This document shows, in pieces, positions 615-49,515 of a stretch of DNA of 50,002 bases. A program made the translations under genes and the position numbers. The notes beneath the pieces were generated by a model. The model was not told the DNA's origin. It searched no databases and worked only from the letters and a program-made list of their open reading frames with translations. Each line of letters starts with the position of its first letter. Position 1 is the stretch's first letter. Origin of the DNA: Shigella phage phiL; the sequence record PP134913. One strand, given 5' to 3'.

Positions 615-653
615 GGTGATTCCTCTGATTGGTATCTCGTTTTGATGGGGTAA

Positions 654-699
654 CTATAGCAAGATACCCCGATCCTGTTTTAACAATTCGTGCTATTTA
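654..699 (-). promoter_or_regulatory. conserved promoter-like element (motif at about -42, hairpin, TATAGT -10)
   Basis: Gene-strand AATAGCACGAATTGTTAAA, 22 nt, TATAGT, then conserved TACCCCATCAAAACGAG leader. Confidence 0.55.
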
Positions 700-1391: not shown

Positions 1392-1437
1392 ACTATACCA
1401 GGTTATCCCGATCCGGTTTTAACAAAAAGTGCTATTT
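1392..1437 (-). promoter_or_regulatory. conserved promoter-like element
   Basis: AATAGCACTTTTTGTTAAA, 22 nt, TATAGT, CATCGACAACGA. Confidence 0.55.
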
Positions 1438-2592: not shown

Positions 2593-2610
2593 ATAGCACT
2601 TTTTGCTAAA
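2593..2610 (+). promoter_or_regulatory. motif copy in divergent control region
   Basis: ATAGCACTTTTTGCTAAA. Confidence 0.4.
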
Positions 2611-2796
2611 AATGGAGATGGCTACCAGGCGAGCCGGGTAACACTAAATCCTCCCTCTCACAATCATTGCATTCTCATCAACAAATCAACCAACTGTTGC
2701 ACACCATGCAATAATCACGTTTCATCATTCGAGATCAATCGGGATCGCAATTATTCCACATATTCCAGTATTGATGGAATAATGAGCAATTATTGG

Positions 2797-2816
2797 AATA
2801 GCATTTTTCGCTAACG
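2797..2816 (+). promoter_or_regulatory. motif copy immediately upstream of methyltransferase-like gene start
   Basis: AATAGCATTTTTCGCTAACG ending 9 nt before ATG 2825. Confidence 0.4.
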
Positions 2817-2824
2817 ACTTAGCT

Positions 2825-3580
2825 ATGTTGGCAGGGTATGATTCATCACATCAACCAATCAGTATGGGATTTGCAATGAAACTAATTTGGTCACTATTCG
2901 ACGGTTCCGGCCTTGCTGGTCATGAACTGGCTAAGCAAGGTCATAAGGTGATGTGCTTCAACTTTGACGGGGCCGATCACGGAGATTATGCAAAGTACAA
3001 TGCCCGGGTAGAGCATCCGAATATTGAGTATGTGAACGTCTTCATTGATGATAAGTTCGAACGTGATGCGATCGCTGGTGTGTATGGCAAGCCGGATTTA
3101 ATCATGGCCTTTCCTCCATGCACTGACCTAGCTGTTAGTGGCGCTCGTCACTTTGCAAGTAAGCGTGAGCGCGATCCGTTATTCCAGGAGAAGGCTGTTG
3201 CAACCGCACGGATTGCTGCGAATATTGGCGACGCCCTGGGCGTGACCTACATCATTGAGAATCCGGTTAGCGTTCTGTCATCTGCCTGGAGAAAACCAGA
3301 TCACTCATTCAATCCCTGGGAGTATGGCGGCTATCTTCCCGAGAATGACTCACACCCCTGGTTCCCGATGTATATTGCGCCGCGCGATGCTTACCCGAAA
3401 AAGACGTGTCTTTGGACCTCGGACGATTTTGTCATGCCGGAGAGAAAGCCAGTAAGCCTGCCTGACGGGTACTCTGCGCAGCAAAACAAGCTGGGCGGCA
3501 AGTCGGCAAAGACAAAGCTGATACGATCCTTGTCGCCGCGTGGATTTTTCAAAGCGATCGCAAATAGCACTTTTTGTTAA
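2825..3580 (+). CDS. compact DNA cytosine-C5 methyltransferase-like protein (251 aa)
   Basis: Ordered motifs LFDGSGLAG (motif I-like), FPPCTDLAVSG (PC catalytic motif), IIENP (ENV-like); start codon uncertain. Confidence 0.5.
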   Translation: MLAGYDSSHQPISMGFAMKLIWSLFDGSGLAGHELAKQGHKVMCFNFDGADHGDYAKYNARVEHPNIEYVNVFIDDKFERDAIAGVYGKPDLIMAFPPCTDLAVSGARHFASKRERDPLFQEKAVATARIAANIGDALGVTYIIENPVSVLSSAWRKPDHSFNPWEYGGYLPENDSHPWFPMYIAPRDAYPKKTCLWTSDDFVMPERKPVSLPDGYSAQQNKLGGKSAKTKLIRSLSPRGFFKAIANSTFC

Positions 3581-3607
3581 AACTCGATCGGTGTGATTTG
3601 GCATAAT
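3563..3607 (+). promoter_or_regulatory. conserved promoter-like element
   Basis: AATAGCACTTTTTGTTAAA ... CATAAT TACCTCATCGAAACGAG. Confidence 0.5.
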
Positions 3608-3645: not shown

Positions 3646-3981
3646 ATGAAATACGAAAATCGCGGTAACGAAATCATCAAAATCGAAAACGGCGTTGAGT
3701 ACATCATGGTAGCTTGCAAGGTTAACGGCATGGATTCCTTCGTATGGGAAGAAATCAAAACTGAAGACAAAGCTGCTAAATTCCTGACCTGTGTTAACCA
3801 GCCGGACGCGGAACGTGACACCTTCACCCGTTACGGTAAATATGAAATCGTTCGCGAGACTTCATGCTTCTGGTGGGTTAAGCCTAACAGCCAGTACAAA
3901 TTCCCGCGCAAAATAAGCAAGCGCACCATGCGTGAAGCTGGCTTCAAGAAAGCGTATGCCGCTGAGTTCGATATTGATTAA
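3646..3981 (+). CDS. hypothetical protein (111 aa)
   Basis: RBS CAGGAG upstream; promoter element 3563..3607. Confidence 0.5.
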   Translation: MKYENRGNEIIKIENGVEYIMVACKVNGMDSFVWEEIKTEDKAAKFLTCVNQPDAERDTFTRYGKYEIVRETSCFWWVKPNSQYKFPRKISKRTMREAGFKKAYAAEFDID

Positions 3982-4024
3982 TAGCACGAATTGCTAAACG
4001 CCCCGAAGGTGATCGGGGTATAGT
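3980..4024 (+). promoter_or_regulatory. conserved promoter-like element
   Basis: AATAGCACGAATTGCTAAA, 22 nt containing hairpin CCCCGA/TCGGGG, TATAGT. Confidence 0.55.
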
Positions 4025-4957: not shown

Positions 4958-5097
4958 TTTATATTCACACTTTCTATACTGGCAAATTTAACAGCGTAAA
5001 AAATGTTCGCGTTTACGATAGTCACCAAAAAGCAATGATGCAGAAAGTAGTTCTAGGTGGAACAATCAAAGAGTGTAAAGTAATTTCCGAGTACTGA
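4954..5097 (+). CDS. small hypothetical protein (47 aa)
   Basis: ATGA overlap with upstream stop; not in ORF track. Confidence 0.3.
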   Translation: MIYIHTFYTGKFNSVKNVRVYDSHQKAMMQKVVLGGTIKECKVISEY

Positions 5098-5141
5098 TAG
5101 CACTAATTGCTAAAGACAATAAATAGGGAGTAAGGTATATT
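5097..5141 (+). promoter_or_regulatory. conserved promoter-like element
   Basis: GATAGCACTAATTGCTAAAG ... TATATT within hairpin GGGAGTAA/TTACTCCC. Confidence 0.5.
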
Positions 5142-5615: not shown

Positions 5616-5659
5616 ATAGCACGATTTGTTAATATTTCCGTAAGGTCATTTGATAAAGT
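5615..5659 (+). promoter_or_regulatory. conserved promoter-like element
   Basis: AATAGCACGATTTGTTAAT ... TAAAGT. Confidence 0.45.
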
Positions 5660-6114: not shown

Positions 6115-6159
6115 AATAGCACTTTTTGCAAAACGCGTGTACCATTGGCGGTGTATCAT
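6115..6159 (+). promoter_or_regulatory. conserved promoter-like element
   Basis: AATAGCACTTTTTGCAAAA ... TATCAT in hairpin CGGTGT/ACACCG. Confidence 0.5.
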
Positions 6160-9722: not shown

Positions 9723-9767
9723 ACTATACCCGAATCCCTTCGGGCGTTTTTATCAATTAGTGCGATC
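9723..9767 (-). promoter_or_regulatory. conserved promoter-like element (degenerate motif)
   Basis: TATAGT plus AACCACATCAAAAAC leader; motif GGATCGCACTAATTGATA. Confidence 0.4.
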
Positions 9768-10986: not shown

Positions 10987-11388
10987 TCATGCCACAGCCT
11001 TTAACCAGAATCCTAGATCCGAAGATTTAAACTCAACAAGTTTTCCGTCAACCTCAAGCATCATACTGTTTCTGCCTGGTGAGTAGTAACCTATATGCAA
11101 CTCCTGCTCAATACCGATAGTGCAAAGCACATTAACAAAGTCAGGTGGCAACCAGTCAGAGAAAGGGATTTGTTTAACCTGCCTTTTCCCGATCCATATT
11201 GTCTGGTAGTAATCTGAGTTAATATTTAAGCCTGGAAGGCTTGTTGCTCTTTGCGTTCTTTCGTTCTCGCTCAATTCTCTTTCCTTCTTCACGATAAAAC
11301 TCAAGTGACGGGGTTGCTGGCACTCTATGCATTTTTCTCGGCATATCTTCCATAAATGAAATCTTTCCGTTTGATATAATGCTAACAT
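10987..11388 (-). CDS. hypothetical protein (133 aa); start doubtful
   Basis: Overlaps 11219..11491 by 170 nt in another frame; poor RBS at 11388. Confidence 0.3.
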   Translation of the reverse strand: MLALYQTERFHLWKICREKCIECQQPRHLSFIVKKERELSENERTQRATSLPGLNINSDYYQTIWIGKRQVKQIPFSDWLPPDFVNVLCTIGIEQELHIGYYSPGRNSMMLEVDGKLVEFKSSDLGFWLKAVA

Positions 11389-11491
11389 CCTTTATATCGA
11401 AATATTTTGCTATTAGTGCTATATCGTCTGATATTCCGCATTCCTTTGCGTGCTCCCAAACCTCTCGTTTACCTTGTTTTTTTATCAGCAT
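11219..11491 (-). CDS. hypothetical protein (90 aa)
   Basis: ATG 11491 preceded by GGAGA. Confidence 0.45.
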   Translation of the reverse strand: MLIKKQGKREVWEHAKECGISDDIALIAKYFDIKDVSIISNGKISFMEDMPRKMHRVPATPSLEFYREEGKRIERERKNAKSNKPSRLKY

Positions 11492-11710: not shown

Positions 11711-11755
11711 ACTATACCCGACTTTCGCCGGGTATTTTTAGCAATTAGTGCTGAA
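11711..11755 (-). promoter_or_regulatory. conserved promoter-like element
   Basis: TTCAGCACTAATTGCTAAAA ... hairpin ... TATAGT. Confidence 0.5.
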
Positions 11756-12733: not shown

Positions 12734-12779
12734 ATAATGCCAGATTCCATTCCGGCAGTTTTAACAAAAAGTGCTATTT
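12734..12779 (-). promoter_or_regulatory. conserved promoter-like element upstream of Dam gene
   Basis: AATAGCACTTTTTGTTAAAA ... CATTAT ... CAAAACGAGAGG leader. Confidence 0.5.
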
Positions 12780-15219: not shown

Positions 15220-15248
15220 TTGAATCGTTGTATCGTTTACGCTATAAT
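15220..15248 (+). promoter_or_regulatory. sigma70-like promoter TTGAAT-N17-TATAAT for Cro-like gene
   Basis: Near-consensus hexamers with 17-nt spacer, about 50 nt upstream of ATG 15300. Confidence 0.6.
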
Positions 15249-15267
15249 ACACGACATACAGTAAACG

Positions 15268-15286
15268 TTTTTAGCAAAAATTGCTA
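15268..15286 (+). promoter_or_regulatory. perfect palindromic motif copy in leader of Cro-like gene
   Basis: TAGCAAAAATTGCTA between -10 (15243..15248) and RBS. Confidence 0.5.
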
Positions 15287-15299
15287 CAGGAGAATTAAG

Positions 15300-15752
15300 A
15301 TGAATATGCAACGTATCGCAGAGTCAACTGGTGAAATCGATAAACGTCACATTAATGGTAACAACGGAACGCGACGCGGTAAAGACAAAAAGCCTCGCCA
15401 GCGCTGCGGCTTCTATATTCATAAAGAAGAAACACGAGCGGGACTGCGAGCGCGACTTGACGCTCTTATTGAATATTACGGCGGCCCAGCGGCCTGCGCA
15501 AAAGCTCTGAAGGTTAGCAATCAGACCGTGCAAGGATGGAAAGATCGCAACATGATTTCGTGGCAAGGTGCTGAAGCTGCGCATCGTGCTTACCGCCGTC
15601 AGGGGTGTAAAGGATTCCGCGCCGCATGGCTGCGATTCGACCTGAAGTTTGACGGTAACGGAAAATGCCTTGAGAAGAGATGCAAGAATAAGAAATTTAT
15701 GCGCGTCGTGAAGAAGGAAGATATCGGAACGACCAATAGCATTTTTAGTTAA
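15300..15752 (+). CDS. Cro/YdaS-like HTH DNA-binding protein
   Basis: GGPAACAKALKVSNQTVQGWKDRN HTH resembling YdaS/Cro family; AGGAGA RBS; own sigma70-like promoter. Confidence 0.55.
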   Translation: MNMQRIAESTGEIDKRHINGNNGTRRGKDKKPRQRCGFYIHKEETRAGLRARLDALIEYYGGPAACAKALKVSNQTVQGWKDRNMISWQGAEAAHRAYRRQGCKGFRAAWLRFDLKFDGNGKCLEKRCKNKKFMRVVKKEDIGTTNSIFS

Positions 15753-15756
15753 AACA
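15737..15756 (+). promoter_or_regulatory. motif copy at 3' end of Cro-like gene
   Basis: AATAGCATTTTTAGTTAAAA followed by terminator hairpin. Confidence 0.4.
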
Positions 15757-15761
15757 ATAGA

Positions 15762-15797
15762 CGCGTAGCGGGTTAACATCCTTCTACGCGTTTTTTA
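15762..15797 (+). terminator. intrinsic terminator after Cro-like gene
   Basis: Hairpin CGCGTAG...CTACGCG followed by TTTTTTATTT. Confidence 0.5.
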
Positions 15798-16748: not shown

Positions 16749-16770
16749 CCGCCTTCTGGCGGTTTTTTAT
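16749..16770 (+). terminator. intrinsic terminator after primase-like gene
   Basis: Hairpin CCGCCTTCTGGCGG followed by 6 T. Confidence 0.65.
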
Positions 16771-16786
16771 TGTCCATTGCAAGTCA

Positions 16787-16830
16787 GATAGCACAATGAT
16801 AAAATCATTGTTTAGCAATTCGTGCTATTT
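16787..16830 (+). promoter_or_regulatory. motif copy plus half-site and palindrome CAATGAT-AAA-ATCATTG upstream of tail fibre RBS
   Basis: GATAGCAC, CAATGATAAAATCATTG, TTTAGCAATTCGTGCTATTT ending 8 nt before AAGGAG. Confidence 0.45.
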
Positions 16831-16848
16831 ACTTAAGGAGTTTATACT

Positions 16849-19769: not shown

Positions 19770-19843
19770 CTTAACTTCTCCTGATTGGTGTATGAGGTGC
19801 ATTATAACACCTCATTAATTATTTGTTTAGCTATTTGTGCCGT

Positions 19844-26102: not shown

Positions 26103-26113
26103 GATGTTTACCT

Positions 26114-26131
26114 TTTTGTGCTATTTATCGG
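26114..26131 (-). promoter_or_regulatory. degenerate motif copy immediately upstream of J-like gene start
   Basis: Gene-strand AATAGCACAAAAAGGTAAAC then ATCATG. Confidence 0.3.
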
Positions 26132-26150
26132 TGAACCCATTATACAGGCG

Positions 26151-26173
26151 AAAAAAAACCCGCGCAAGGCGGG
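26151..26173 (-). terminator. intrinsic terminator between I-like and J-like genes
   Basis: Hairpin CCCGCGCAAGGCGGG with 8 T on gene strand; identical hairpin at 28332..28346. Confidence 0.6.
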
Positions 26174-26179
26174 TTAATT

Positions 26180-26779
26180 TTAACTCATATCCTCGGCATA
26201 AGAACCTGCTGAGAAAGTTGCGCCACCTCCGGCTCGATATCCATACGGGACCGGGAGAGGGTATCCCGCCGCCGTCGTGTTGACAGCACCGCCGAACGCG
26301 TACGAAGGTTTATTCTTGCTTGATTGAACTTCAAAGTTTGCTCCACCCGGCTGCGGTGAAATCATTTGCATCACGCCGCCCAGCACCATAGCGCCGCCCA
26401 TCATAAACAGAGAAGATGACATTGTTCCCATTAATGCCAGAGACGCACCTCCAGTATAGAACGCAGCAACCATTATTGCTGCACCCAATACAACCTGAAA
26501 TAGACCGCCGGACTTAGAACCAGTCGGGATCGGGACAATCCTTATCTCTTTGGCGCACTTGAATTTTTCCTCTTCATGGTGTCCAACGTTAACGCCGTCA
26601 ACAAATATTGCAAACTTACTTCGAGAGCCAACCTCGCTCTGCATGTATTCTTTAAATCCATCTACCTGACTGGATAGTGCGCGAATGGCTTCCGGGTAAG
26701 ATTCAACAGCAAAGCGGTGAAAGACGCCGAAGCGCCTACCAAGCGAACCTGATAACTTGATTACTTTTACATCATTCAT
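26180..26779 (-). CDS. tail assembly protein (lambda I-like)
   Basis: Position between K-like and J-like; Gly/Ala-rich hydrophobic C-terminal half. Confidence 0.7.
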   Translation of the reverse strand: MNDVKVIKLSGSLGRRFGVFHRFAVESYPEAIRALSSQVDGFKEYMQSEVGSRSKFAIFVDGVNVGHHEEEKFKCAKEIRIVPIPTGSKSGGLFQVVLGAAIMVAAFYTGGASLALMGTMSSSLFMMGGAMVLGGVMQMISPQPGGANFEVQSSKNKPSYAFGGAVNTTAAGYPLPVPYGYRAGGGATFSAGSYAEDMS

Positions 26780-31636: not shown

Positions 31637-32271
31637 TTAGTTATTCTGCTTAGCAATCATTTCAAGCGCTTTCGCTTCCATGATTCTAACGTCCTGCAAT
31701 GCCAGTTCTTCATCATCTATTTTATAGATTTTGAACAGCATAGGCAAAACATTATAGTCAAGACCATAAGCTCCAGCGCCTGAACTTCTCCACTGAGTGA
31801 GCATTGACGTAAAAACATTCCACGCCTTCACCATTTCAGCGTCGCCAATTATCGTTTCCGGTTCCTCGTCTTCATAGTCAGAAAGACTGAGGCCAACCGA
31901 TCGTAATTGCTCTTCTGTCGGCGGTTTCTGATATAACAGATAAACCGCCCGTTTTAGTTTTTTGCGCGGTGTCCGGCGAGCGCCTTGATGTAAGTTGCCG
32001 TCAGATTGTACGCTGCGGAAGGGTAATACTGTACCAGTTTACGCGCATTCTCTTCGTTAAATTCTTCTTCCAGATTCCACCCGGACGCGATCTTAGTGAT
32101 GAAATCGCTATCATTCATTTCTCCCTGTTTAGTGTACATATCCTGTACTTCTTTACTGGAAAGGTGGCGCACGGTAAAAATAATCGTCGCATCTTCACCG
32201 TTTGGCATGGTGAAAGTAACCGGAAGTTTGAAGTCTGGAAGCTGGCCCAGCACAAAATTGAATTTAGCCAT
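31637..32271 (-). CDS. tail assembly chaperone G-T fusion made by -1 frameshift
   Basis: -1 frame open from slippery site to stop at 31637 with no intervening stop. Confidence 0.5.
31954..32271 (-). CDS. tail assembly chaperone (lambda G-like)
   Basis: Between major tail and tape measure; ends with slippery A_AAA_AAC. Confidence 0.6.
   Translation of the reverse strand: MAKFNFVLGQLPDFKLPVTFTMPNGEDATIIFTVRHLSSKEVQDMYTKQGEMNDSDFITKIASGWNLEEEFNEENARKLVQYYPSAAYNLTATYIKALAGHRAKN
31957..31963 (-). other. -1 programmed frameshift slippery heptamer A_AAA_AAC
   Basis: Heptamer in G frame immediately before the G stop codon. Confidence 0.5.
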
Positions 32272-32290
32272 GATGTTCTCCTGATTGGTT

Positions 32291-32310
32291 GATAGCACTT
32301 TTTGTTAAAA
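32291..32310 (-). promoter_or_regulatory. motif copy immediately upstream of tail chaperone RBS
   Basis: Plus-strand GATAGCACTTTTTGTTAAAA adjacent to CAGGAGA RBS. Confidence 0.45.
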
Positions 32311-32339
32311 GTGAATTGAATAAAGTTGATACGATGATT

Positions 32340-32372
32340 CTACAGAAATGAAGAAGGGGGCGCAAGCCCCCT
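32340..32372 (-). terminator. possible terminator after major tail gene
   Basis: Hairpin GGGGGCTTGCGCCCCC followed by TTCTTCATTT (weak U-tract). Confidence 0.4.
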
Positions 32373-32383
32373 GTGGATGTGAT

Positions 32384-33052
32384 TTAGGCACCTGGAGATG
32401 CCAGAGTGGATGAGACGAAAGTAAAATCACCTTTCAGGGATACGGCGAGTTGTACTGTTTCCATTTCGTTCACTTGCGTAGATGGGATGTCGTTAAAAGA
32501 CAAGATGCCAGCCCACATGCGCATCTCGTTCGCTTTTGGAACATACATACGAACCGCAGTTACCTGACCAGAAGAATCCAGCTTACGCAGAATTGGGTAG
32601 ATCGGGTTATCAAATTCGTGCGCGAAGGTGTAGGTTAGTGAGATCGCGGATTTAAATGTCGGGATCTGCTGCTCCTTATCGTCGGACAAACACTGATAAG
32701 TGTAGTACTGCTGCTCGCCGCCGTCCTGACCAATCTCCTGCACGCATGGGATCTCAGTCCACCCGGTAATTTTTGCAAAGCTCATTGTCCCGCCAGCCGG
32801 AAAAACTAGAGTGTCAGAGGTGTCAATTCCAGCAAGTGTAATCTTTGTTTCCTGGGCGTCAGTGACAATTAGCACACGGCTAACCATTTTAGCCCACGTT
32901 GACTGAGTTACAATAACGTAATTACCTTTAGCTAAATCACCCTTAGATGCAACTGTAGCAACAGGCTGTTTTGCATTAGTAATAGCAGTTGCCTCGATCT
33001 CTTCTCCGCGAGAAGTTTCTACGAAAATTTGCGCGCCATTTGGTAAGTGCAT
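32384..33052 (-). CDS. major tail protein
   Basis: Upstream of G/GT and tape measure; AAAGGAGA RBS; terminator downstream. Confidence 0.65.
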   Translation of the reverse strand: MHLPNGAQIFVETSRGEEIEATAITNAKQPVATVASKGDLAKGNYVIVTQSTWAKMVSRVLIVTDAQETKITLAGIDTSDTLVFPAGGTMSFAKITGWTEIPCVQEIGQDGGEQQYYTYQCLSDDKEQQIPTFKSAISLTYTFAHEFDNPIYPILRKLDSSGQVTAVRMYVPKANEMRMWAGILSFNDIPSTQVNEMETVQLAVSLKGDFTFVSSTLASPGA

Positions 33053-35041: not shown

Positions 35042-36001
35042 TTACACGCCAGTGATTAAGACAATAGTCATCGGGCGATAAATTGTAAGACCAGTACACT
35101 TAGAGGTGCAAGGCACTTTAAAGTGCAAGTCTTTCGGCTGCGCTGGCAGCATGTTAAATGCTTCCGGGATCTCGATGGACATATTCATCGGATTTTTTTC
35201 GTACACCAGCACGCCTTTAGTACCAGCACCGTCGATATCTTCAAGCTCTGCGATAGAGTCGATTTCGATACCCGCATTCTGAGACTTGAAATAGTCCAGG
35301 TAAGACATGGTAGTTTCAGGCATACGGATCGCCAGAACCTTACGCATGGACGGCGGGATCAGGATGTTGGTTGCACGATGCTGGCCGCGTGTAATCGTCT
35401 CGATGGTTTCGATCGCCTGAGTCAATTCCGCTTCAGCAGTTTCCGGCTTCGGAGTTGCTGCATTCATCCACTTACCCGAGGTGATTTTGGTGATGTTCGG
35501 ATGATTGAACACAGACACGATCTTGTGCGGAGCAGAACCTTTGAACACCAGGCGGTTAACCAGTTGGTCGTGTGCTAACTGACATGCGCTTGCCTTGCGG
35601 GTTGACAGTGGTCGACCAGTTGCCTGACCTGCTTTGATTTCATCAATTGAGATCAGATACGCGTTACCCAAACGAAATACCTTGCCGAACTCAGAAGTAC
35701 CCAGGGCATCAACAAGCGGCAGGTCATCTGTATAGTCAGCGATAATCTGCGCAGTACCAACCTTATCAAAGGTCATATACTCAAACGTCTTGTCGGTCGG
35801 AGAAAGATCGGTAGTGACCGGGAATACTCGAAGTGCGGAGCCTACCGGGTAGTCTTCTTCATAGGACTGACTCTTGATGCGGTGTAGTTCCTGAGCGGTC
35901 CAGATACCCATCGTTGCGGCTGCATCCTGTTTTACTCCAGCCTGGATCAGATACATTTCAACATTGCTCTTATCTGCTTCATCAAATTTTTTAGTAGTCA
36001 T
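35042..36001 (-). CDS. major capsid protein
   Basis: 319 aa; AAGGAGAAG RBS; flanked by terminators; follows scaffold and head proteins. Confidence 0.65.
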   Translation of the reverse strand: MTTKKFDEADKSNVEMYLIQAGVKQDAAATMGIWTAQELHRIKSQSYEEDYPVGSALRVFPVTTDLSPTDKTFEYMTFDKVGTAQIIADYTDDLPLVDALGTSEFGKVFRLGNAYLISIDEIKAGQATGRPLSTRKASACQLAHDQLVNRLVFKGSAPHKIVSVFNHPNITKITSGKWMNAATPKPETAEAELTQAIETIETITRGQHRATNILIPPSMRKVLAIRMPETTMSYLDYFKSQNAGIEIDSIAELEDIDGAGTKGVLVYEKNPMNMSIEIPEAFNMLPAQPKDLHFKVPCTSKCTGLTIYRPMTIVLITGV

Positions 36002-36021
36002 GATTACTTCTCCTTAGTTAA

Positions 36022-36049
36022 TAAAAAAGCCGTGATTATGTTCACGGCT
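36022..36049 (-). terminator. intrinsic terminator immediately upstream of capsid RBS
   Basis: Hairpin GCCGTGAACATAATCACGGC followed by TTTTTTATT. Confidence 0.6.
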
Positions 36050-36054
36050 TCAAT

Positions 36055-36074
36055 AATAGCACTTTTTGTTAAAG
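36055..36074 (-). promoter_or_regulatory. motif copy upstream of capsid gene, followed by terminator hairpin
   Basis: Plus-strand AATAGCACTTTTTGTTAAAG. Confidence 0.45.
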
Positions 36075-36092
36075 CGTCAAAGTATTTTTATG

Positions 36093-36857
36093 TTATGAGT
36101 CTTCTTCGGCTGGCGTAGCATCAAAGACATAAGTGATCGATTCTTTAGTTTTGCTGGCATCGTTAGCCACCCAATTTACGTTTACGCTACCTGCTGAATC
36201 TCCACCAATTGGAGTAAGAACGCCAGATTTTGGATCTATTGTCGCAACATTTTCAGCATCAACAGACCACACGCCAGTTTTATTGGTGGCGTTGTCAGGT
36301 TTTACGGCAACGTTAAATTGCACAGGTGCATTGTTTGGCTGCGGACTCTCCTTGTTAGTGGTAATCGTCGCAGACTTAACAAGAACCACAGGAGCGGGTG
36401 GAGGTGGGGTAATGAAAGCATTTTGCTTCACCTGTACCTCAATAATGTACCCGTCATCGTGCTTAACAAATCCACCAGCAAATGTCCAACCTACGGAACC
36501 AGAGCTACCAGTAACAACACCACCAGATCCAAATTGTAACTTTGAGAATAAGGCCGGAGATTCATCAAGAGAAGTGAGGGTCCACATGCGACCATGAGAA
36601 ACGACGTTGCAAACTTCACCGTCTAGGATTTTACCGCTCAGGTGTTCATATTGGGAACGGAAAGCTATACCGTAAGGAGTTCCACCATCAGCAAGCGCCT
36701 TTACAACCTTCACTCCATCAACGATCCCGACAACCTGAACCGCAGCGCCGAACTCAATATCACCCTGAGCAACACAAGATCCATCAATATTGTAGGCTGA
36801 AGTATCAGAAAGATTCCCTGGGCACGCTGGGCGCAACATTAAATTTTCGTAAGCCAT
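36093..36857 (-). CDS. head protein with C-terminal Ig-like domain (paralog of 36918..37394)
   Basis: N-terminal 150 aa aligns with neighbour (YNIDGxCV, GAAVxVV, YGxAxRS, SxGRxW); PPPPAP linker then beta-rich domain. Confidence 0.55.
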   Translation of the reverse strand: MAYENLMLRPACPGNLSDTSAYNIDGSCVAQGDIEFGAAVQVVGIVDGVKVVKALADGGTPYGIAFRSQYEHLSGKILDGEVCNVVSHGRMWTLTSLDESPALFSKLQFGSGGVVTGSSGSVGWTFAGGFVKHDDGYIIEVQVKQNAFITPPPPAPVVLVKSATITTNKESPQPNNAPVQFNVAVKPDNATNKTGVWSVDAENVATIDPKSGVLTPIGGDSAGSVNVNWVANDASKTKESITYVFDATPAEEDS

Positions 36858-42216: not shown

Positions 42217-42741
42217 TTAAAGCATGTCAAGAATACTGTTTACAGCCTCTTTCATTGCTTCCTCAGTAGTGGCGACAGCGGTCGACGCTGAAGCTGCCGA
42301 GTTTTCGATGTTGATTGAAGCTGGCTTGTCGATTCCGAGATCCTTGCCGATAAATGAGGCGTTAATAACGCCGTTTGCGGCAAGCTGAAATTTTTGCTCG
42401 TTGATTACGGATTCCACGAACTCCATAACCTCACTGTATTCTTCCTCACGCTTCCACTTAATGATTGCGGCCTCGCTTGCACCGATAAACAGTCGATATC
42501 CGGTCCAGGTGAAGACGCGCGGCTTATGAACAAGCGATTCATAAACGCCACCCTGAAAGCTGGCTGATTCTGAAGCCTTTATCGCGTTGTCCTCAGCCCA
42601 TTCGAAATACTTCACCGACAGATCGAATAGTTGTTCTGGCGTCATCGCACGGTTCTTCGCAAGAACAGTGCCGAATTTTTTCTTGTATAGCTCTTTGAAA
42701 TTACCTCCCTGGACTACGGGAGCATTCTTAGGTTCACTCAT
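42217..42741 (-). CDS. terminase small subunit
   Basis: Directly upstream of TerL; start set at ATG with AGAGGA RBS. Confidence 0.55.
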   Translation of the reverse strand: MSEPKNAPVVQGGNFKELYKKKFGTVLAKNRAMTPEQLFDLSVKYFEWAEDNAIKASESASFQGGVYESLVHKPRVFTWTGYRLFIGASEAAIIKWKREEEYSEVMEFVESVINEQKFQLAANGVINASFIGKDLGIDKPASINIENSAASASTAVATTEEAMKEAVNSILDML

Positions 42742-42757
42742 AAATCCATCCTCTTTG

Positions 42758-42778
42758 TTTAACATTTAGTGCTATTTT
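42758..42778 (-). promoter_or_regulatory. motif copy immediately upstream of TerS RBS
   Basis: Gene-strand AAATAGCACTAAATGTTAAAC then AAAGAGGA RBS. Confidence 0.45.
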
Positions 42779-42793
42779 ACCATATTGCAGGCA

Positions 42794-42816
42794 TAAAAAA
42801 ACCCGCCGAAGCGGGT
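42794..42816 (-). terminator. intrinsic terminator upstream of TerS
   Basis: Hairpin ACCCGCTTCGGCGGGT followed by 7 T. Confidence 0.6.
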
Positions 42817-42825
42817 TAGTATTTA

Positions 42826-43053
42826 TCACGATAATCGTCGTTTAATGCCTTTGGGGTGGGTCTGAGCTTTAGAGTAGCAGTGAGCAAGGTCGCCAGTCAT
42901 TTCCCATTGGTCCTTCTTAGGTGAGTAGGTAAGCCATACACCAGTTTTATCCTTCGCGTCCATCGCAATTGCTGCTGCCACAAGTGCGAATCCAGCAAAC
43001 AAACCAGCACCAAAAATAACGATACCAGCGATAATCAATAAAAAAATGGTCAT
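42826..43053 (-). CDS. small membrane protein (75 aa)
   Basis: N-terminal hydrophobic stretch IFLLIIAGIVIFGAGLFAGFALVAAAIA. Confidence 0.5.
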   Translation of the reverse strand: MTIFLLIIAGIVIFGAGLFAGFALVAAAIAMDAKDKTGVWLTYSPKKDQWEMTGDLAHCYSKAQTHPKGIKRRLS

Positions 43054-44562: not shown

Positions 44563-44608
44563 ACTATATCAAATCACCCCATCGACGCTTTAGCAATTCG
44601 TGCTATTT
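44563..44608 (-). promoter_or_regulatory. conserved promoter-like element
   Basis: AATAGCACGAATTGCTAAAG, 22 nt, TATAGT, TACCTCATCGACAACGAA. Confidence 0.55.
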
Positions 44609-45175
44609 ATTGATGAATGTGGCGGCTATGTGATGAGCGGTAATTTCTGGATGACCTTCGACAGAGAAGAAGTCACACTCCTGATAACCGTTAACCCCGA
44701 TCATATCGTCCAGGTAGATATAGTCTCGACTGTCATTATCGAAGTTGCAACCGTTGCGATGTATTCGACATAGCTTGACTTGGATATCACCTTCAATCAT
44801 CTGCAAGATTTCGTCTTTGAATCCACCATCAGTAAATACCGAAAGGGAGTGTGACTCTTTCACCTTGCTTTCCGCTCGCATACCGAAGAAGCGATTTCCG
44901 AACTGCGGCTTGATGACTTCCTCGCTAATCCAGATCATAAACTGGCGCGGGCTTTTACCGTTCAGGATAGATGCTGGCTCTTCTTTATATCGTCGGTCCT
45001 CATACAAGAACATGAAATACTCGTAGTTAGCTTCACCCAGGATTGCCCGGGCAATCTCAAACATTGGCGCTTTGAAGCTGCGCAAGGCTACGTGATCGTA
45101 AGTGTCAGCAAGGATGCATCCGATAGTGTCTTTTCCCGATCCAGGTGCGCCGTTTAAAATGATAGCTGTTTTCAT
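44603..45175 (-). CDS. deoxynucleoside monophosphate kinase-like P-loop kinase
   Basis: P-loop NGAPGSGKDT and LNGKSP motif resembling T4 gene 1 dNMP kinase. Confidence 0.6.
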   Translation of the reverse strand: MKTAIILNGAPGSGKDTIGCILADTYDHVALRSFKAPMFEIARAILGEANYEYFMFLYEDRRYKEEPASILNGKSPRQFMIWISEEVIKPQFGNRFFGMRAESKVKESHSLSVFTDGGFKDEILQMIEGDIQVKLCRIHRNGCNFDNDSRDYIYLDDMIGVNGYQECDFFSVEGHPEITAHHIAATFINK

Positions 45176-45176
45176 G

Positions 45177-45287
45177 TTAGTATCTCCCTAAAAATAATTT
45201 TGCTACATTGATGATAGTGTGATTGATGATTAACAGGATGATAACCGTCAATACCGGATGTGCTGCAATAAATTCGTACAGGTTCAC
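45177..45287 (-). CDS. possible very small hydrophobic peptide (36 aa, GTG start)
   Basis: GTG overlapping upstream TGA; AGGAG RBS. Confidence 0.25.
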   Translation of the reverse strand: MNLYEFIAAHPVLTVIILLIINHTIINVAKLFLGRY

Positions 45288-45895
45288 TTCAATAACTCCT
45301 TGCACTTAATGCATATTTTATCGCCAAATGGCGGTAGCGGCTCAGATGGTTCATGATTGCAAACCTCATCCACCCCGTGAGATTTTAAATGATCGTGAAC
45401 GTTATCGCCATAGTCAACTACGGCATACGTTGTTATTCCAAGCGATCGGAATAATGGAATAATTTGCGGTGAGTCATCCCAGGCCGCCAGAATGTTATCA
45501 ATGCCGATCGCGCGCACCGCCTCTTCTTTCATTACCGTGTCTTTGCGGTTGTCGGTATGCGGCCTCATGACTAAGTAATCATATCGCGCGCCGTGATGCT
45601 TAAGCCATAACTCAGATGCGTAACGCACCTCATCGCTTCGCCCGGTTAAAATGATCACATGATGACCAGCGGCATACATAGAGTTCATCACTTCAATCGT
45701 ACTCTGGATTGGGTTATCAAATATTGCCGCCCTGTTAAACTCAGACCAGCTTTCAGTCAAGTGCAAATCTTTTGTCGGTAGCAGGTGAAGACGTTTTGAG
45801 CCGTCACTCAGCGTTCAGTCGAAGTCAAAGATTGCCACGCGGCGAGTGCCGAGAAACAGGTTGATTGTCTGGCCCCAAATTGTGATTTTATCCAC
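45284..45895 (-). CDS. HAD-superfamily phosphatase interrupted by an in-frame TGA at codon 27
   Basis: GTG 45895 with AGGAGA RBS; reads VAIFDFD-TGA-TLSDG then intact HAD motifs (ILTGR, AWDDS); TGA at 45815..45817. Confidence 0.5.
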
Positions 45896-46098
45896 TATGC
45901 TTTCTCCTGTAAGCGAATGATTTTGATGGTTAATTCTTCTTCAACAATTTTGTAGCCGGATGATTCAAATTTACTCTCACGAGTCTGATTGCATGAATCA
46001 ATAACGACCTGGCTATTCTGAATATCGTCAGCCATGCCGATTAGAATGTTAACGATCTGCGTTCTCGTTTCGTTGCTCATTCCGGTAATAGTTTTCAT
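45895..46098 (-). CDS. hypothetical protein (67 aa)
   Basis: Downstream of promoter element 46138..46182. Confidence 0.5.
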   Translation of the reverse strand: MKTITGMSNETRTQIVNILIGMADDIQNSQVVIDSCNQTRESKFESSGYKIVEEELTIKIIRLQEKA

Positions 46099-46137
46099 GG
46101 TGATTACTCTGATTGGTTGCTTAACTCAACGAAGGGC

Positions 46138-46182
46138 ATTCTATCAAATACCCTTGAGCAAGTTTTAGCAATTCGTGCTATT
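46138..46182 (-). promoter_or_regulatory. conserved promoter-like element
   Basis: AATAGCACGAATTGCTAAAA ... TAGAAT. Confidence 0.5.
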
Positions 46183-46627
46183 ACCAGCAACTGATCTCAT
46201 AATCAGCCCAAGTGTCAAAGCTACACTGGCTGAAGTCGCCGCCGTAGTTTTCCATAATTTCATCGACCAGGAAGTAACAGGACTCACCGTTACGGTAGAA
46301 GTATGAATCTGCAACGTTACGCGCCCAGCGTCCGGCATCCTTCTTGCTCATCTTCCAGTATTTCATTGCAATTTTCTTGAATGCACGCACAACACGCTTG
46401 CGGATCTTAATGTGCTTGTACACCGCGTTGCAGCCGTAGGCCATATATTCGTTATCGCCAAGATTCTGCATAATGTACGGATTTACTTCTTTTGACGTAA
46501 TCATCAGATCGCCATCGCATAGACGCGCATCATGAATACTTGCTGTCATGTAGTGACCTTTGAACATTCCGATGCCGTGAAGAGTGTATTCATCGTTAGG
46601 CGTTTCAATGCAAATTAAGTGTTTCAT
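46181..46627 (-). CDS. hypothetical protein (148 aa)
   Basis: Start set at ATG with GAGGAAG RBS; promoter element 46658..46702. Confidence 0.5.
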   Translation of the reverse strand: MKHLICIETPNDEYTLHGIGMFKGHYMTASIHDARLCDGDLMITSKEVNPYIMQNLGDNEYMAYGCNAVYKHIKIRKRVVRAFKKIAMKYWKMSKKDAGRWARNVADSYFYRNGESCYFLVDEIMENYGGDFSQCSFDTWADYEISCW

Positions 46628-46657
46628 TAGTGCTTCCTCGTTTGTTGGTGTAGGGGA

Positions 46658-46702
46658 ATCATAGCGCATTCCCCTTGATAGGTTTTAGCAATTCGTGCTA
46701 TT
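46658..46702 (-). promoter_or_regulatory. conserved promoter-like element
   Basis: AATAGCACGAATTGCTAAAA ... hairpin GGGGAAT/ATTCCCC with TATGAT. Confidence 0.5.
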
Positions 46703-46903
46703 CGTTTTAATAGTGATGCAAAAATAATTTTTTAAGCACGTCACCACGCGCGCTGAATCGACTTGTGGGAGCCTTAAAATCTCGTGGACCAATTGCACTG
46801 CCGACACCTCAGATTTGTAGTAGTGGGCGATTCTGGAGGTATTTGGGCGCATTCCTTCCACTGCGTCGCGTGCTGCATCTTCTGCTGTCATGATAGTAGC
46901 CAT
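46685..46903 (-). CDS. hypothetical protein (72 aa)
   Basis: ORF whose 3' end reads through motif copy. Confidence 0.4.
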   Translation of the reverse strand: MATIMTAEDAARDAVEGMRPNTSRIAHYYKSEVSAVQLVHEILRLPQVDSARVVTCLKNYFCITIKTNSTNC

Positions 46904-46998
46904 AAAACACCCTTAAGAGATAATGTCAGGATCAGGAGGCAAAATAGCAACTCCTGAAATGATGGCGGCTCGTTATTCCAGTTAGAAAAGTCTGGCAT
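46894..46998 (-). CDS. possible small membrane peptide (34 aa)
   Basis: ATG after GGAGAAAAC; hydrophobic FCLLILTLSL. Confidence 0.3.
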
Positions 46999-47051
46999 AG
47001 TGTTTTCTCCAAAAGAAAGGGGAACCGTTCAGAGCCGATTCCCCATTAGCA

Positions 47052-47690
47052 TTACATGATGAACAACAGCGAAATCGAAGCGACCATGAGAACAAGAGCG
47101 ATAGCCAGACCAGACAAATCTGCCTTCTCTTCAAACTTCGTCGCTGGCTTGCGGTCAACTTCTGACGGCTTGACGTTGTGGATATTGTTCGCCTCAACCT
47201 TACCCTTGACGCAGAAAGTACGCTTGCGCTTCTTGCCGAACGTTGCGAACTTAGTGCCGCCGCTGTTCCAACGAAGACCTTCACCGTTGTGCGTTACGGT
47301 TGCAATGCGGTGGCGGCCCGTGTCGTCGGTCAGTGCTACAGTGTGCTTTGCGTGCTCAGTAGGCACGTCGTAGATTTTGCCAACGGTAAATTTTTTAGTG
47401 TTATCACTGATACATTCGAATTTCATAAATTTTACCTCTTTATTATGCAGTTGGTTGATTGCTTCGATTACGTCGTTAAATTTAACACCATCCACGATTC
47501 GATGGAAGATATATTTTGAGCTACCGCCATACGGAAGGAATATTTCCTGGTATTCGTGACGCCGGACAACATTCACGTTGCAACCGTGCTCATCAATAAT
47601 AACGAAGCTGTCATCATTCACTCTAGCGCCTTCGTACACCCTACCCCACTTAAAACCAGATCCGCTACTTGATACGCATTCAAATTTCAT
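47052..47690 (-). CDS. membrane-anchored protein with internal tandem duplication (212 aa)
   Basis: Two copies of an ~80 aa unit each starting MKFEC; C-terminal TM LSGLAIALVLMVASISLLFIM. Confidence 0.55.
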   Translation of the reverse strand: MKFECVSSSGSGFKWGRVYEGARVNDDSFVIIDEHGCNVNVVRRHEYQEIFLPYGGSSKYIFHRIVDGVKFNDVIEAINQLHNKEVKFMKFECISDNTKKFTVGKIYDVPTEHAKHTVALTDDTGRHRIATVTHNGEGLRWNSGGTKFATFGKKRKRTFCVKGKVEANNIHNVKPSEVDRKPATKFEEKADLSGLAIALVLMVASISLLFIM

Positions 47691-47974
47691 GGTCTAACCT
47701 TCCTGTAAGGTTTGATTGATAACATCACGTATTGCGTGAAGTCGCACCCTTGATCGTCATACCCGCGATTAATGTATGGCGTCACATCGGTAACATCGGA
47801 TACCCTGGCGTGAACTTCCCACCCGGTAAACTCACCGCGCTCGAACTCTCGTAGCTCCAGGATATCACCAACCTGGAAGTTGCGGTCATTGACGCGGAAC
47901 TCTGCCGTTTTGGTTCCGTTCATTACTCCGATGAAATGTACCGGAGCAATCTTAAGTTTATGAATCTTGATCAT
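47687..47974 (-). CDS. ASCH-like (DUF3850-type) small protein
   Basis: N-terminal HKLKIAPVHF...GTKTAEFRVNDRNFQVGD pattern. Confidence 0.5.
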   Translation of the reverse strand: MIKIHKLKIAPVHFIGVMNGTKTAEFRVNDRNFQVGDILELREFERGEFTGWEVHARVSDVTDVTPYINRGYDDQGCDFTQYVMLSIKPYRKVRP

Positions 47975-48164
47975 CTTTCTTTACCTCGAATGTCACGTTC
48001 CAAAACTTGTTTCCGCATGAGTGATAGGTTACGTCTGGCGGCGTGAGTTCGTGCAATGCGTGCCCGATAATCTCCATTCGGTCATTCGGAGTCAGTCCGC
48101 GAAGTGATTCACGTAGGCGCGATGCCTTGTCGTAAATCTGCCATTGAGTGAGTCGTGTAGCCAT
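47958..48164 (-). CDS. hypothetical protein (68 aa)
   Basis: Start set at ATG 48164; promoter element 48205..48250. Confidence 0.4.
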   Translation of the reverse strand: MATRLTQWQIYDKASRLRESLRGLTPNDRMEIIGHALHELTPPDVTYHSCGNKFWNVTFEVKKDDQDS

Positions 48165-48204
48165 AGCTGATTCCTGTGATTGGTTGCTCTGCTTCAATAA
48201 GGCC

Positions 48205-48250
48205 ACTATATCAAATGGCCTTGCGGAAGGTTTAGCAATTCGTGCTATCG
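48205..48250 (-). promoter_or_regulatory. conserved promoter-like element
   Basis: GATAGCACGAATTGCTAAA ... hairpin GGCCA/TGGCC with TATAGT. Confidence 0.5.
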
Positions 48251-48394
48251 TTTAACGCACATCGTTTTTACTTCATATCCGAACGGCTTGTTCTCTGCGA
48301 TTACTTCCCTAGCCTTGTTGCATGATTGCTGACTTTCCATGTATACGTGATCCGGCCCGGTACTCATCAAGATAATCAAAACCCATGCAGCCAT
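48245..48394 (-). CDS. small hypothetical protein (49 aa), hydrophobic N-terminus
   Basis: ATG overlapping upstream TAA; GAGGTG RBS; not in ORF track. Confidence 0.3.
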   Translation of the reverse strand: MAAWVLIILMSTGPDHVYMESQQSCNKAREVIAENKPFGYEVKTMCVKR

Positions 48395-48879
48395 TATTTC
48401 ACCTCGTAGCGTACAAGTGTTCCGCGCTTAATGCTGATTTCACCTGATGCCGTCTTGTGCTTAAAGCCGCCGTAATGCAACAGGAGAATCACCACATCAT
48501 CGTGCACCTCAATAGTTTTAGGCGTGGCGGTAATATCGAGCCATGATTCGCTATCAAGTTGGACACCCTTTAGTGTCGCGCTAACTGGCATGTTCTCGAT
48601 CTGAGTACATTGTAGCATTGGCTTGATTTCTTGCTTTGCGCTATGAAAGATTGCTCGGCCAGCCTTCCAACCAGATCCAACACACTCAACATAATATGGA
48701 AGAGATGGGATGTTATCAGGGTTGTGATTATTGTGAAGCTCAATGAGATTGCCAACAATAGACGGATGACACTCATTGAATGACGAGTCTGTTGCACAGT
48801 CTTTGCTATGGCAGGTTATTTTTCCGCAGCTAATAGTGTTAAAAACTACAGGGAATTTAATCTCGTTTAATTTCAACAT
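48394..48879 (-). CDS. hypothetical Cys-rich protein (161 aa)
   Basis: Downstream of promoter element 48910..48954. Confidence 0.5.
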   Translation of the reverse strand: MLKLNEIKFPVVFNTISCGKITCHSKDCATDSSFNECHPSIVGNLIELHNNHNPDNIPSLPYYVECVGSGWKAGRAIFHSAKQEIKPMLQCTQIENMPVSATLKGVQLDSESWLDITATPKTIEVHDDVVILLLHYGGFKHKTASGEISIKRGTLVRYEVK

Positions 48880-48909
48880 AACTCTTTCATCTTAGTGGTT
48901 GATGTGGGG

Positions 48910-48954
48910 ATTATACCAGTCAGGCCAAATCCCCTTTTAACAATTCGTGCTTAG
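48910..48954 (-). promoter_or_regulatory. conserved promoter-like element
   Basis: AAGCACGAATTGTTAAAA ... TATAAT ... CACATCAACCAC. Confidence 0.5.
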
Positions 48955-49439
48955 TAAACTAACTCGCACTCAATATCGAACGGCTCGGCGTTACAGTGGA
49001 AGAAGCAAAGTGCCTCTTTATTCATCCCGCCGACAAATCCAACGGCTCGCAACTGCTCATCGTTAACGTATGCCAGATTGCTAGTAATTTCTTCAAAGTC
49101 CACGATAACTGGGAATGTGCGGTTCTCATAGCCTTGTCGCAGCGGGTAGCCGCCATTGTTGAGAAGTCGAACCTTGCGCGGCTTGACGTTCGCTTGAACT
49201 TCCCATTCAAAAAAGAACATAGTTACGTCATTCTCGTTAAAGTCAGCTGGACCAAATACAGGGCTAACTGAAAGTCCATAGTCCAGATCGTACACGCCAG
49301 CCTTAACTAGATCGTCAACCTTAACGCGGTAGCCTCCAGTGCCGGAATCGCATTTAACCGCATCAACCACGATAGGGTCTGCTTCCAGGTCGCGGGTAAA
49401 GCCTTTGTAACCGCCAGTGCAAAGTAATTTGATTTTCAT
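48951..49439 (-). CDS. hypothetical protein (162 aa)
   Basis: Start set at ATG with ACGAGGG RBS; promoter element 49471..49515. Confidence 0.5.
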   Translation of the reverse strand: MKIKLLCTGGYKGFTRDLEADPIVVDAVKCDSGTGGYRVKVDDLVKAGVYDLDYGLSVSPVFGPADFNENDVTMFFFEWEVQANVKPRKVRLLNNGGYPLRQGYENRTFPVIVDFEEITSNLAYVNDEQLRAVGFVGGMNKEALCFFHCNAEPFDIECELVY

Positions 49440-49470
49440 GTTTGTGCCCTCGTTCGTTGTCGATGTGGTT

Positions 49471-49515
49471 ACTATATCGCAACCCCGGAATTGAGTTTTA
49501 ACAAAAAGTGCTATT
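49471..49515 (-). promoter_or_regulatory. conserved promoter-like element
   Basis: AATAGCACTTTTTGTTAAAA ... TATAGT AACCACATCGACAACGAACGAGGG. Confidence 0.55.

Follow-up and report, generated by a model that had tools for sequence, protein, structure and literature searches.

A promoter-linked repeat of the T1-like Shigella phage phiL resembles the host marbox in a micF-like arrangement

Within the genome of Shigella phage phiL (sequence record PP134913) there is a repeated 20-bp element, here called the box, that lies at a fixed distance upstream of a -10 hexamer in front of early and middle genes. The stretch analysed, which we call the window, comprises 50,002 bp with 45.5% G+C and is the near-complete genome of a Tunavirus (T1-like, Drexlerviridae). 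The data support the view that each element is a non-canonical promoter without a usable -35, in which a conserved site occupies the position of a class II activator. By every sequence criterion the box would be an asymmetric, orientation-specific marbox (or soxbox or robbox), and the element as a whole a class II promoter of the micF type. We put at roughly one in two the probability that these are activator-dependent sigma-70 promoters whose box is read by a host protein of the group Rob, MarA and SoxS, which we regard as the most likely readers.

The repeated box and its likeness to the marbox

The motif TAGCACNNNNNGYTAA, allowing at most one mismatch, is found 25 times in the window. Shuffled sequences give an expectation of 1.45 +/- 1.21, and none of 100 shuffles reached 25. 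A preliminary description of this DNA had listed 16 copies, and the element is present at each of them. Read in the orientation of the gene, all 16 share a single layout, with the box followed by a fixed gap, a TATAGT-like hexamer, about 6 nt, a predicted start that is usually "CA", a CA-rich leader and the ribosome binding site (RBS). The same layout is seen in further copies at 2798 (+; gap 19), 15287 (-; helicase gene) and 19843 (-; erf-like gene, gap 17), and in weaker form at 11422 (-) and 15736 (+). Between the last position of the 20-bp box and the hexamer there are 18 bp in 17 copies, 19 bp in two and 17 bp in one. The preliminary description gave 22 nt, which is the correct count if one starts at the -35-like TTGYTA. 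Nearly every copy has TAnnnT as its hexamer, the G at -14 is ~90% conserved, and the start codon of the gene lies 68-84 nt from the box.

There is no recognisable -35 hexamer. At a spacing of 17 bp the sequence is AAAACn, matching TTGACA at two or three of six positions, and the early region contains 22 canonical -35/-10 pairs, no more than the 24.2 expected. The box spans approximately -50 to -31 with its center close to -41/-42, and every copy with a -10 partner (19-21 copies) points forward relative to the promoter. The non-canonical architecture, the class II position and the placement before early and middle genes were all anticipated in the preliminary description, and all are borne out.

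The same description treated the box as a near-palindrome, and here it stands only in part. The TAGCA/TGCTA symmetry exists, but it extends over 5 + 5 bp only and is perfect in ~10 of the 25 copies, and the conserved flanks (A1, C7, A17-A19 and C20) are asymmetric; an orientation-specific marbox is the better description. The conserved blocks are ATAGCAC and TAAAA, with an A/T-rich stretch lying between them, and the two-fold symmetric conservation of an operator for a dimeric helix-turn-helix (HTH) protein of the Cro/cI type is not seen. Copies that are not part of a promoter keep the asymmetric flanks in both orientations. In the copy at 19843 all the marbox positions are kept and the TAGCA/TGCTA symmetry has decayed.

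The enterobacterial marbox/soxbox/robbox consensus is AYNGCACNNWNNRYYAAAYN (PMC2064960). Its recognition elements, GCAC and YAAA, are read by a monomer with two HTH motifs (PMC9638938; PMC6900184), and the blocks of maximum conservation in the phage box, GCAC and TAAA, are these two elements. The first 18 positions of AYNGCACNNWNNRYYAAAYN have 17 exact matches in the window, where 0.05 would be expected. A form of the consensus derived by chromatin immunoprecipitation, GCAHWWWWTGYYAAA (PMC6900184), has 11, with 0.09 expected. Phage lambda, taken as a natural control, contains no match to either. The corresponding numbers of exact matches to AYNGCACNNWNNRYYAAAYN and GCAHWWWWTGYYAAA are 15 and 11 in T1 and 18 and 11 in LeonhardEuler, and there are 15 matches to AYNGCACNNWNNRYYAAAYN in 30 kb of Motto. 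The promoter copies agree with the marbox at 11-14 of its 14 consensus positions, and the marbox of mar itself, ATGCCACGTTTTGCTAAATC, has TTTTGCTAAA in common with phage copies.

In class II promoters activated by MarA, SoxS or Rob a forward box overlaps the -35 position, with its center at about -41/-41.5, and there is no recognisable -35 (PMC9638938 and PMC10268841 among the sources). The micF promoter of E. coli K-12 comprises the box ACAGCACTGAATGTCAAAAC, 18 bp, the hexamer TAGAAT and 7 nt before the annotated +1. In orientation and in the 18-bp gap the phage cassettes agree with it, and by hand count the phage box is identical to that of micF at 15 of 20 positions, including the 3' AAAAC. 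Thus in sequence, forward orientation, position and spacing, and in the lack of a -35, the cassettes agree with class II marbox promoters. We estimate that a match to a 22-bit consensus combined with the micF spacing and orientation would be very unlikely to arise by chance, even when many candidate factors are allowed for. The sequence is not specific to the phage, as had been supposed, since it equals the host MarA/SoxS/Rob binding site in a micF-like geometry, and the DNA-binding factor left unnamed in the preliminary description has an obvious host candidate.

The cassettes are conserved across the family. We find 20-21 of the class II type in the window, 19 in T1, 22 in LeonhardEuler, 11 in Vc1, 19 in 30 kb of Motto and several in KP36. 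Tunavirus and the Vc1/Motto group share one and the same box consensus. A scan of IMG/VR for the box, N19 and TATAAT returned 81 stretches, almost all of them on contigs of ~50 kb, with 387 exact marbox matches in 702 kb. Among contigs of 65-129 kb it returned single or no full boxes and no arrays, a negative made weak by the narrow pattern. About 20 records labelled 'Campylobacter phage' (MG0656xx), together with the Pseudomonas-labelled ON843697.1 (Motto) and the Vibrio-labelled NC_054898.2 (Vc1), encode the Drexlerviridae regulator discussed below, and carry the same cassettes where examined.

Candidate readers of the box

In the mechanism that we infer, a monomeric activator of the MarA/SoxS/Rob group, with its two HTH motifs, would bind the forward box, supply the contact that a -35 would otherwise make and bring in RNA polymerase, as happens at micF. 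The ~20 cassettes would in this way drive early and middle genes, and the same protein would repress those late promoters that are overlapped or directly followed by boxes. The result would be an early-on, late-off state at the moment of infection. Host MarA, SoxS and Rob are present before any phage protein, which fits promoters that fire at time zero. Rob is constitutive in the cell, and for this reason would be the likeliest reader in unstressed cells. More tentatively, we propose that the Drexlerviridae may have wired early and middle transcription to host MarA/SoxS/Rob through ~20 near-optimal class II marboxes per genome, and that the same box may repress late promoters and sit on the promoter of a Cro-like protein that possibly competes for it. 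A MarA-like protein encoded by the phage was rejected as a candidate, since the only annotated regulator has a single-HTH Cro fold and no AraC-type Pfam hit was found, with not every open reading frame (ORF) scanned.

A number of points weigh against a host reader. Positions A3, T11 and T12, at which the marbox is free, are >90% conserved in the phage, which hints at a second reader or at one with narrower specificity. T1 multiplies very rapidly in laboratory cells that are not under stress, and these contain little MarA or SoxS. We know of no rob, mar or sox phenotype for T1, and in the literature searched no paper linked Drexlerviridae or T1 with MarA/SoxS/Rob. The same box is found in phages labelled Vibrio cholerae (Vc1) and Pseudomonas aeruginosa (Motto), and to our knowledge these hosts lack MarA and SoxS; the labels are doubtful because both phages are of enteric-phage lineages, Motto having 44.5% G+C. 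A conserved phage regulator gene adjoins a box that overlaps the regulator's own promoter. Outside Tunavirus the only late copy conserved is that at the capsid gene. Lastly, Rob is largely sequestered in unstressed cells (PMC10268841).

The box could instead be read by that regulator, a Cro-like protein of 150 amino acids. It would bind TAGCA-N5-TGCTA centered at -42, activate ~20 middle promoters by way of sigma region 4, in the manner of lambda cI at PRM, and regulate its own gene; the likeness to the marbox would then be mimicry or coincidence. We think this unlikely, although several points favor it. The regulator is a core gene of the Drexlerviridae, found in 824 phage records, and would work in any host, including those of the Vibrio- and Pseudomonas-labelled phages. 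Reading by the regulator would account for the additional conservation at T2, A3 and T12, the positions that complete the palindrome. The protein's model (pLDDT 82) matches the Cro proteins of Xfaso 1 and N15; these contain a single HTH, unlike the MarA fold. The gene has a canonical sigma-70 promoter of its own, followed at ~+17 on the + strand by the box of 15244..15287, the most palindromic copy, which also serves the helicase cassette on the - strand; autoregulation or competition for the box is therefore plausible. In T1, however, the copy at the regulator gene is an ordinary ATAGCAC box without a perfect palindrome.

The proposal meets its main difficulty in the recognition helix of the regulator, which is identical at one of 10 positions between Tunavirus and the Vc1/Motto group, whereas the box consensus is identical in the two. 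A helix that has diverged while the box has not counts against the Cro-like regulator as the reader, and makes this Cro/YdaS-like protein, which the preliminary description had named for binding tests, a weaker candidate. The most conserved part of the regulator, far above the HTH, is a disordered N-terminal basic arm (residues 1-35, 15300-15404; STGEIDKRxINGNNGTRRGKDKKPR), with 25-27 of 31 residues identical across the family. This nearly invariant arm may bind the minor groove of DNA or a host protein, and so could itself contribute to reading DNA. Conserved flanks that are asymmetric, a palindrome with imperfections in over half of the copies and a copy at 19843 that keeps the marbox while losing the palindrome are all poorly accounted for by the Cro-like protein. 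Were it essential, transcription of nearly all early genes could not begin at time zero, and the late promoters that bear boxes would be on first and repressed later, the reverse of the expected order. It would also leave to chance the combined match to the marbox consensus and the micF spacing.

Both proteins might use the site, with a host activator of the MarA/SoxS/Rob type switching the cassettes on at infection and the Cro-like protein then competing at the pseudo-palindrome to shut them off. The positions required by the marbox and by the palindrome together reproduce the phage consensus better than either set does, and there is a box in the regulator's own leader. The divergence of the recognition helix applies here too, however, and we consider such a composite site improbable. 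Still more improbable is direct reading by RNA polymerase, in which the element would be UP-like or a displaced -35 contacted by the C-terminal domain of the alpha subunit or by sigma. The flanks and center are A/T-rich, extended -10 features would allow firing without a factor, and the authors of the paper on phage TLS considered below include this among their options. Yet TTGYTA lies 22 bp from the -10, beyond what sigma-70 tolerates, and as a canonical -35, which would lie at 16-18 bp, it was rejected. By hand comparison a UP element does not fit either, its consensus being A/T-only and placed at -59 to -38, whereas the box contains an invariant GCAC and is displaced downstream. Moreover the match to the marbox would be left unexplained. 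Least probable of all, in our judgment, is that another host protein such as Lrp reads the box, or that it acts as RNA, as a signal for intergenic processing or stability. The Lrp consensus is YAGHAWATTWTDCTR, and by hand comparison the box matches it at 11-13 of 15 positions; the box, however, has an invariant C at position 6 where Lrp wants A/T, and the conservation of C7 and A17-A19 would go unexplained. Significant hairpins favor an RNA signal, but a search of Rfam with the window found no RNA family and the hairpin sequences are not conserved. For both of these ideas, the fixed distance to the -10 and the strict orientation point instead to promoter function at the level of DNA.

Two other kinds of site were tried and rejected. 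The sigma-54 promoter TGGCAC-N5-TTGC resembles the box, but the box has AG-N8-GC in place of the GG-N10-GC of the -24/-12 elements (with a start ~12 nt downstream), a spacing 2 bp short, and the box is followed 18 bp later by a conserved -10 hexamer. The T4-type MotA box, (a/t)(a/t)(a/t)TGCTT(t/c)A at -30, differs in both sequence and position.

Cassettes, hairpins and late promoters in the genome

Over its first 12 kb the window is 90-96% identical to Shfl1, Sfin-1, SA30RD and LeonhardEuler, and it has the gene order of T1 and LeonhardEuler in the reverse orientation. Small early genes occupy 42.8-50 kb and 0-8 kb; genes for replication, methylases and lysis are found at 8-20 kb, and the structural genes at 21-42.7 kb. 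The coordinates of the boxes and of the regulator are collected in Table 1. A gene at 9757-10908 (-) encodes a 383-aa 'phosphoesterase/DNA repair exonuclease' in which an N-terminal HTH like sigma-70 region 4 precedes a metallophosphoesterase domain. The HTH of its KP36 homologue scores 26.6 bits against a Pfam cut-off of 25.7, and that of the window protein 14.8 bits.

Table 1. Boxes, promoter cassettes and regulator features of the window. The gap runs from the end of the box to the -10 hexamer; fractions give agreement with the 14 marbox consensus positions.
Feature	Position (strand)	Box	Gap (bp)	-10 hexamer	Remarks
Promoter cassette	653..696 (-)	ATAGCACGAATTGTTAAAAC, 696..677; 13/14	18	TATAGT, 658..653	Hairpin z = -3.2; predicted start ~646; ATG 614
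Promoter cassette	1392..1435 (-)	ATAGCACTTTTTGTTAAAAC	18	TATAGT	ATG 1360
Orphan box	2593..2612 (+)	ATAGCACTTTTTGCTAAAAA			No -10 at the usual distance; divergent control region (2540-2840) between two early gene blocks
Weaker cassette	2798..2842 (+)	ATAGCATTTTTCGCTAACGA; 11/14	19	TATGAT	Upstream of Dcm-like methylase gene
Promoter cassette	3564..3607 (+)		18	CATAAT	Hexamer preceded by TGg; ATG 3646
Promoter cassette	3981..4024 (+)	ATAGCACGAATTGCTAAACG; 14/14	18	TATAGT	Hairpin CCCCGA/TCGGGG within spacer
Promoter cassette	5097..5141 (+)		19	TATATT	Hairpin z = -4.9
Promoter cassette	5616..5659 (+)	12/14	18	TAAAGT	
Promoter cassette	6116..6159 (+)	ATAGCACTTTTTGCAAAACG	18	TATCAT	Upstream of 543-aa helicase-like gene
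Promoter cassette	9723..9766 (-)	ATCGCACTAATTGATAAAAA; 12/14	18	TATAGT	Spacer hairpin resembles a terminator on the opposite strand
Weak cassette	11379..11422 (-)	ATAGCACTAATAGCAAAATA	18	TAGCAT	
Promoter cassette	11711..11754 (-)	TCAGCACTAATTGCTAAAAA	18	TATAGT	Spacer hairpin terminator-like on the sense strand
Promoter cassette	12734..12777 (-)		18	CATTAT	Upstream of Dam methylase gene
Regulator promoter	15220..15248 (+)			TATAAT	Canonical sigma-70, TTGAAT-17-TATAAT
Helicase-gene cassette	15244..15287 (-)	GTAGCAATTTTTGCTAAAAA	18	TATTAT	
Cro-like regulator gene	15300..15752 (+)				T1 gp23 homologue; 150 aa; only annotated phage regulator
Weaker box	15736..15779 (+)	ATAGCATTTTTAGTTAAAAC	18	TAACAT	Within intrinsic terminator between regulator and primase genes
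Box at late promoter	16809..16828 (-)				Backward relative to tail-fibre gene; just downstream of TTGCAA-17-(TGa)TAAAAT
erf-like-gene cassette	19801..19843 (-)	ACGGCACAAATAGCTAAACA (ACGGCAC...); 14/14	17	TATAAT	Divergent box, poor palindrome; TG with the -10; z = -5.2
Box at late promoter	26105..26124 (-)	13/14			~9 nt past the start of a TATAAT promoter; J-like tail tip gene follows directly
Backward box at late promoter	32292..32311 (+)				In 5' leader (~+19) of late promoter TGTAGAAT
Backward box at late promoter	36056..36075 (+)				Fills spacer of late promoter TTGACG-16-TATTAT before major capsid gene; arrangement kept in T1 and Vc1
Box at late promoter	42756..42775 (-)				Over -10/start of extended -10 promoter TGGTAAAAT adjoining a terminator, before terS; conserved in T1, absent from Vc1
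Promoter cassette	44563..44606 (-)	ATAGCACGAATTGCTAAAGC	18	TATAGT	15-bp hairpin enclosing -10, z = -6.5
Promoter cassette	46138..46181 (-)		18	TAGAAT	
Promoter cassette	46658..46701 (-)		18	TATGAT	
Promoter cassette	48205..48248 (-)	ATAGCACGAATTGCTAAACC; 14/14	18	TATAGT	
Promoter cassette	48910..48953 (-)	TAAGCACGAATTGTTAAAAG; 11/14	18	TATAAT	
Promoter cassette	49471..49514 (-)		18	TATAGT	Leader ATCGACAACGA

The hairpins reported between the box and the start site are real, with 18 of 19 elements folding better than shuffled sequences (mean z = -3.1). Four are confined to the spacer, and among them some are terminator-like on one strand or the other. The rest enclose the -10 hexamer, and therefore transcripts initiated at the cassette would lack the 5' arm. 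As classical terminators the hairpins were rejected, since only a few qualify on one strand or the other and terminator-like sites show no overall enrichment, at 14 where 11.7 are expected; in relatives they are annotated as rho-independent terminators. At 15736 both the box and the -10-like hexamer lie inside a true terminator. In the Motto/Vc1 group a GC-rich stem is followed by CTTTGTTATTAT, and here the U-tract of a terminator may also serve as the -10. The likeliest role of the GC-rich hairpin would be to insulate each cassette from transcription reading through from upstream.

The conserved leader of the preliminary description, ATCGACAACGA, is clear in roughly half of the copies, and others carry CAACCAATCAGGAG. 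Motto and Vc1 keep the leader ATCGA(C/A)AACGA in the form CAACGAAACGAA. In ~6 cassettes the start codon is directly preceded by a second leader common to them, CAACCAATCAG(A)GGA, for example at 614-646, 46100-46131, 48164-48198 and 19769-19794. In the erf-like ORF the first ATG is inside the predicted -10 (TATAATG; region 19769-19806), and a start with a proper RBS is found 33 nt downstream (19769). The annotated ST28 start at 31484 in T1 appears to use the upstream ATG.

Five boxes are associated with late promoters. All five are conserved in T1, and in Vc1 the capsid arrangement only. From their positions these boxes would be expected to repress and not to activate, so that a single protein could keep the early promoters active and silence some of the late ones. 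The late promoters are a second promoter class, distinct from the box cassettes. At late genes a strong intrinsic terminator is followed at once by an extended -10 or near-consensus promoter (TGGTAAAAT, CTGTATAAT, CTGTAGAAT, TTGACG-16-TATTAT and TTGCAA-17-TAAAAT), and such sites are found at 42730-42860, 26090-26200, 32230-32400, 35990-36110 and 16740-16860. The first ATG of terS (42765) lies inside a box. The T1 equivalent of the orphan box at 2593-2612 is at the left genome end, inside the terminal repeat, and the orphan box may therefore relate to pac or replication and not to transcription.

Significance and relation to known systems

T1 is a classic coliphage that has no polymerase or sigma factor of its own, and annotation has yielded hardly any sigma-70 promoters. 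The interpretation of the repeat as a micF-type marbox would provide a concrete and testable mechanism with named candidate proteins. If it is correct, the timing and vigor of phage development would depend on the mar/sox/rob state of the host, as set by bile, salicylate, oxidants or multidrug-resistance mutations, or on how far replicating phage DNA titrates the activator. Expression of the phage would be coupled to the multidrug-resistance regulon, with a bearing on combinations of phage and antibiotic and on behavior in the bile-rich gut. The phage would also offer a set of compact, insulated, activator-dependent promoter cassettes. Should the Cro-like protein read the site instead, a phage factor sharing the marbox sequence would likewise be of interest.

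The repeat itself is not new. The 2024 re-annotation of phage TLS (PMC11447400) describes a 21-nt direct repeat, aaATAGCACnnnTTGnTAAAA, in 21 copies oriented with transcription and lying ~76 nt before start codons, with similar repeats in T1, Rtp and Rogue1 and only three sigma-70-like promoters found. Stoperators, enhancer sites or UP elements are proposed there as its function. This is the identical element in the same orientation, and ~76 nt falls within the distances to the start codon seen here. The fixed -10 partner, the marbox identity and the micF geometry are not reported in the section of that paper examined. What would be new here is the identification of the box, from its sequence, as a marbox in micF geometry and not essentially a palindrome.

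Several known systems share some of these features. In the middle promoters of T4, where a MotA box is combined with sigma appropriation by AsiA, an activator box likewise replaces the -35 upstream of a normal -10. The MotA box, however, lies at -30, has another sequence and is read by a phage-encoded activator, whereas the box of the window, at ~-41, resembles the site of a host activator; annotation shows no homologue of MotA or AsiA. Lambda cI at PRM and the class II sites of CRP and FNR (center ~-41.5/-42) have the same position and contact sigma region 4 or alpha, but these proteins are dimers on symmetric sites, whereas the window box is asymmetric and depends on orientation. The PeSL cassettes of T4-type phages are also repeated modules of promoter plus hairpin between small early genes, but they contain ordinary sigma-70 early promoters. 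The stoperators of L5 are dispersed asymmetric sites oriented with transcription, but they are repressor roadblocks of a temperate phage, with no fixed distance to a -10.

The closest likeness is to the micF-type class II MarA/SoxS/Rob promoters of E. coli and Salmonella. These have the same 20-bp asymmetric box in the forward orientation, overlapping the -35 position, with an 18-bp gap, an ordinary -10 and no -35. The phage differs in carrying ~20 near-identical copies within one virulent genome of 50 kb. Its box is far less degenerate than host marboxes, and it adds a GC-rich hairpin and a shared leader to an arrangement at which binding of MarA, SoxS or Rob is predicted.

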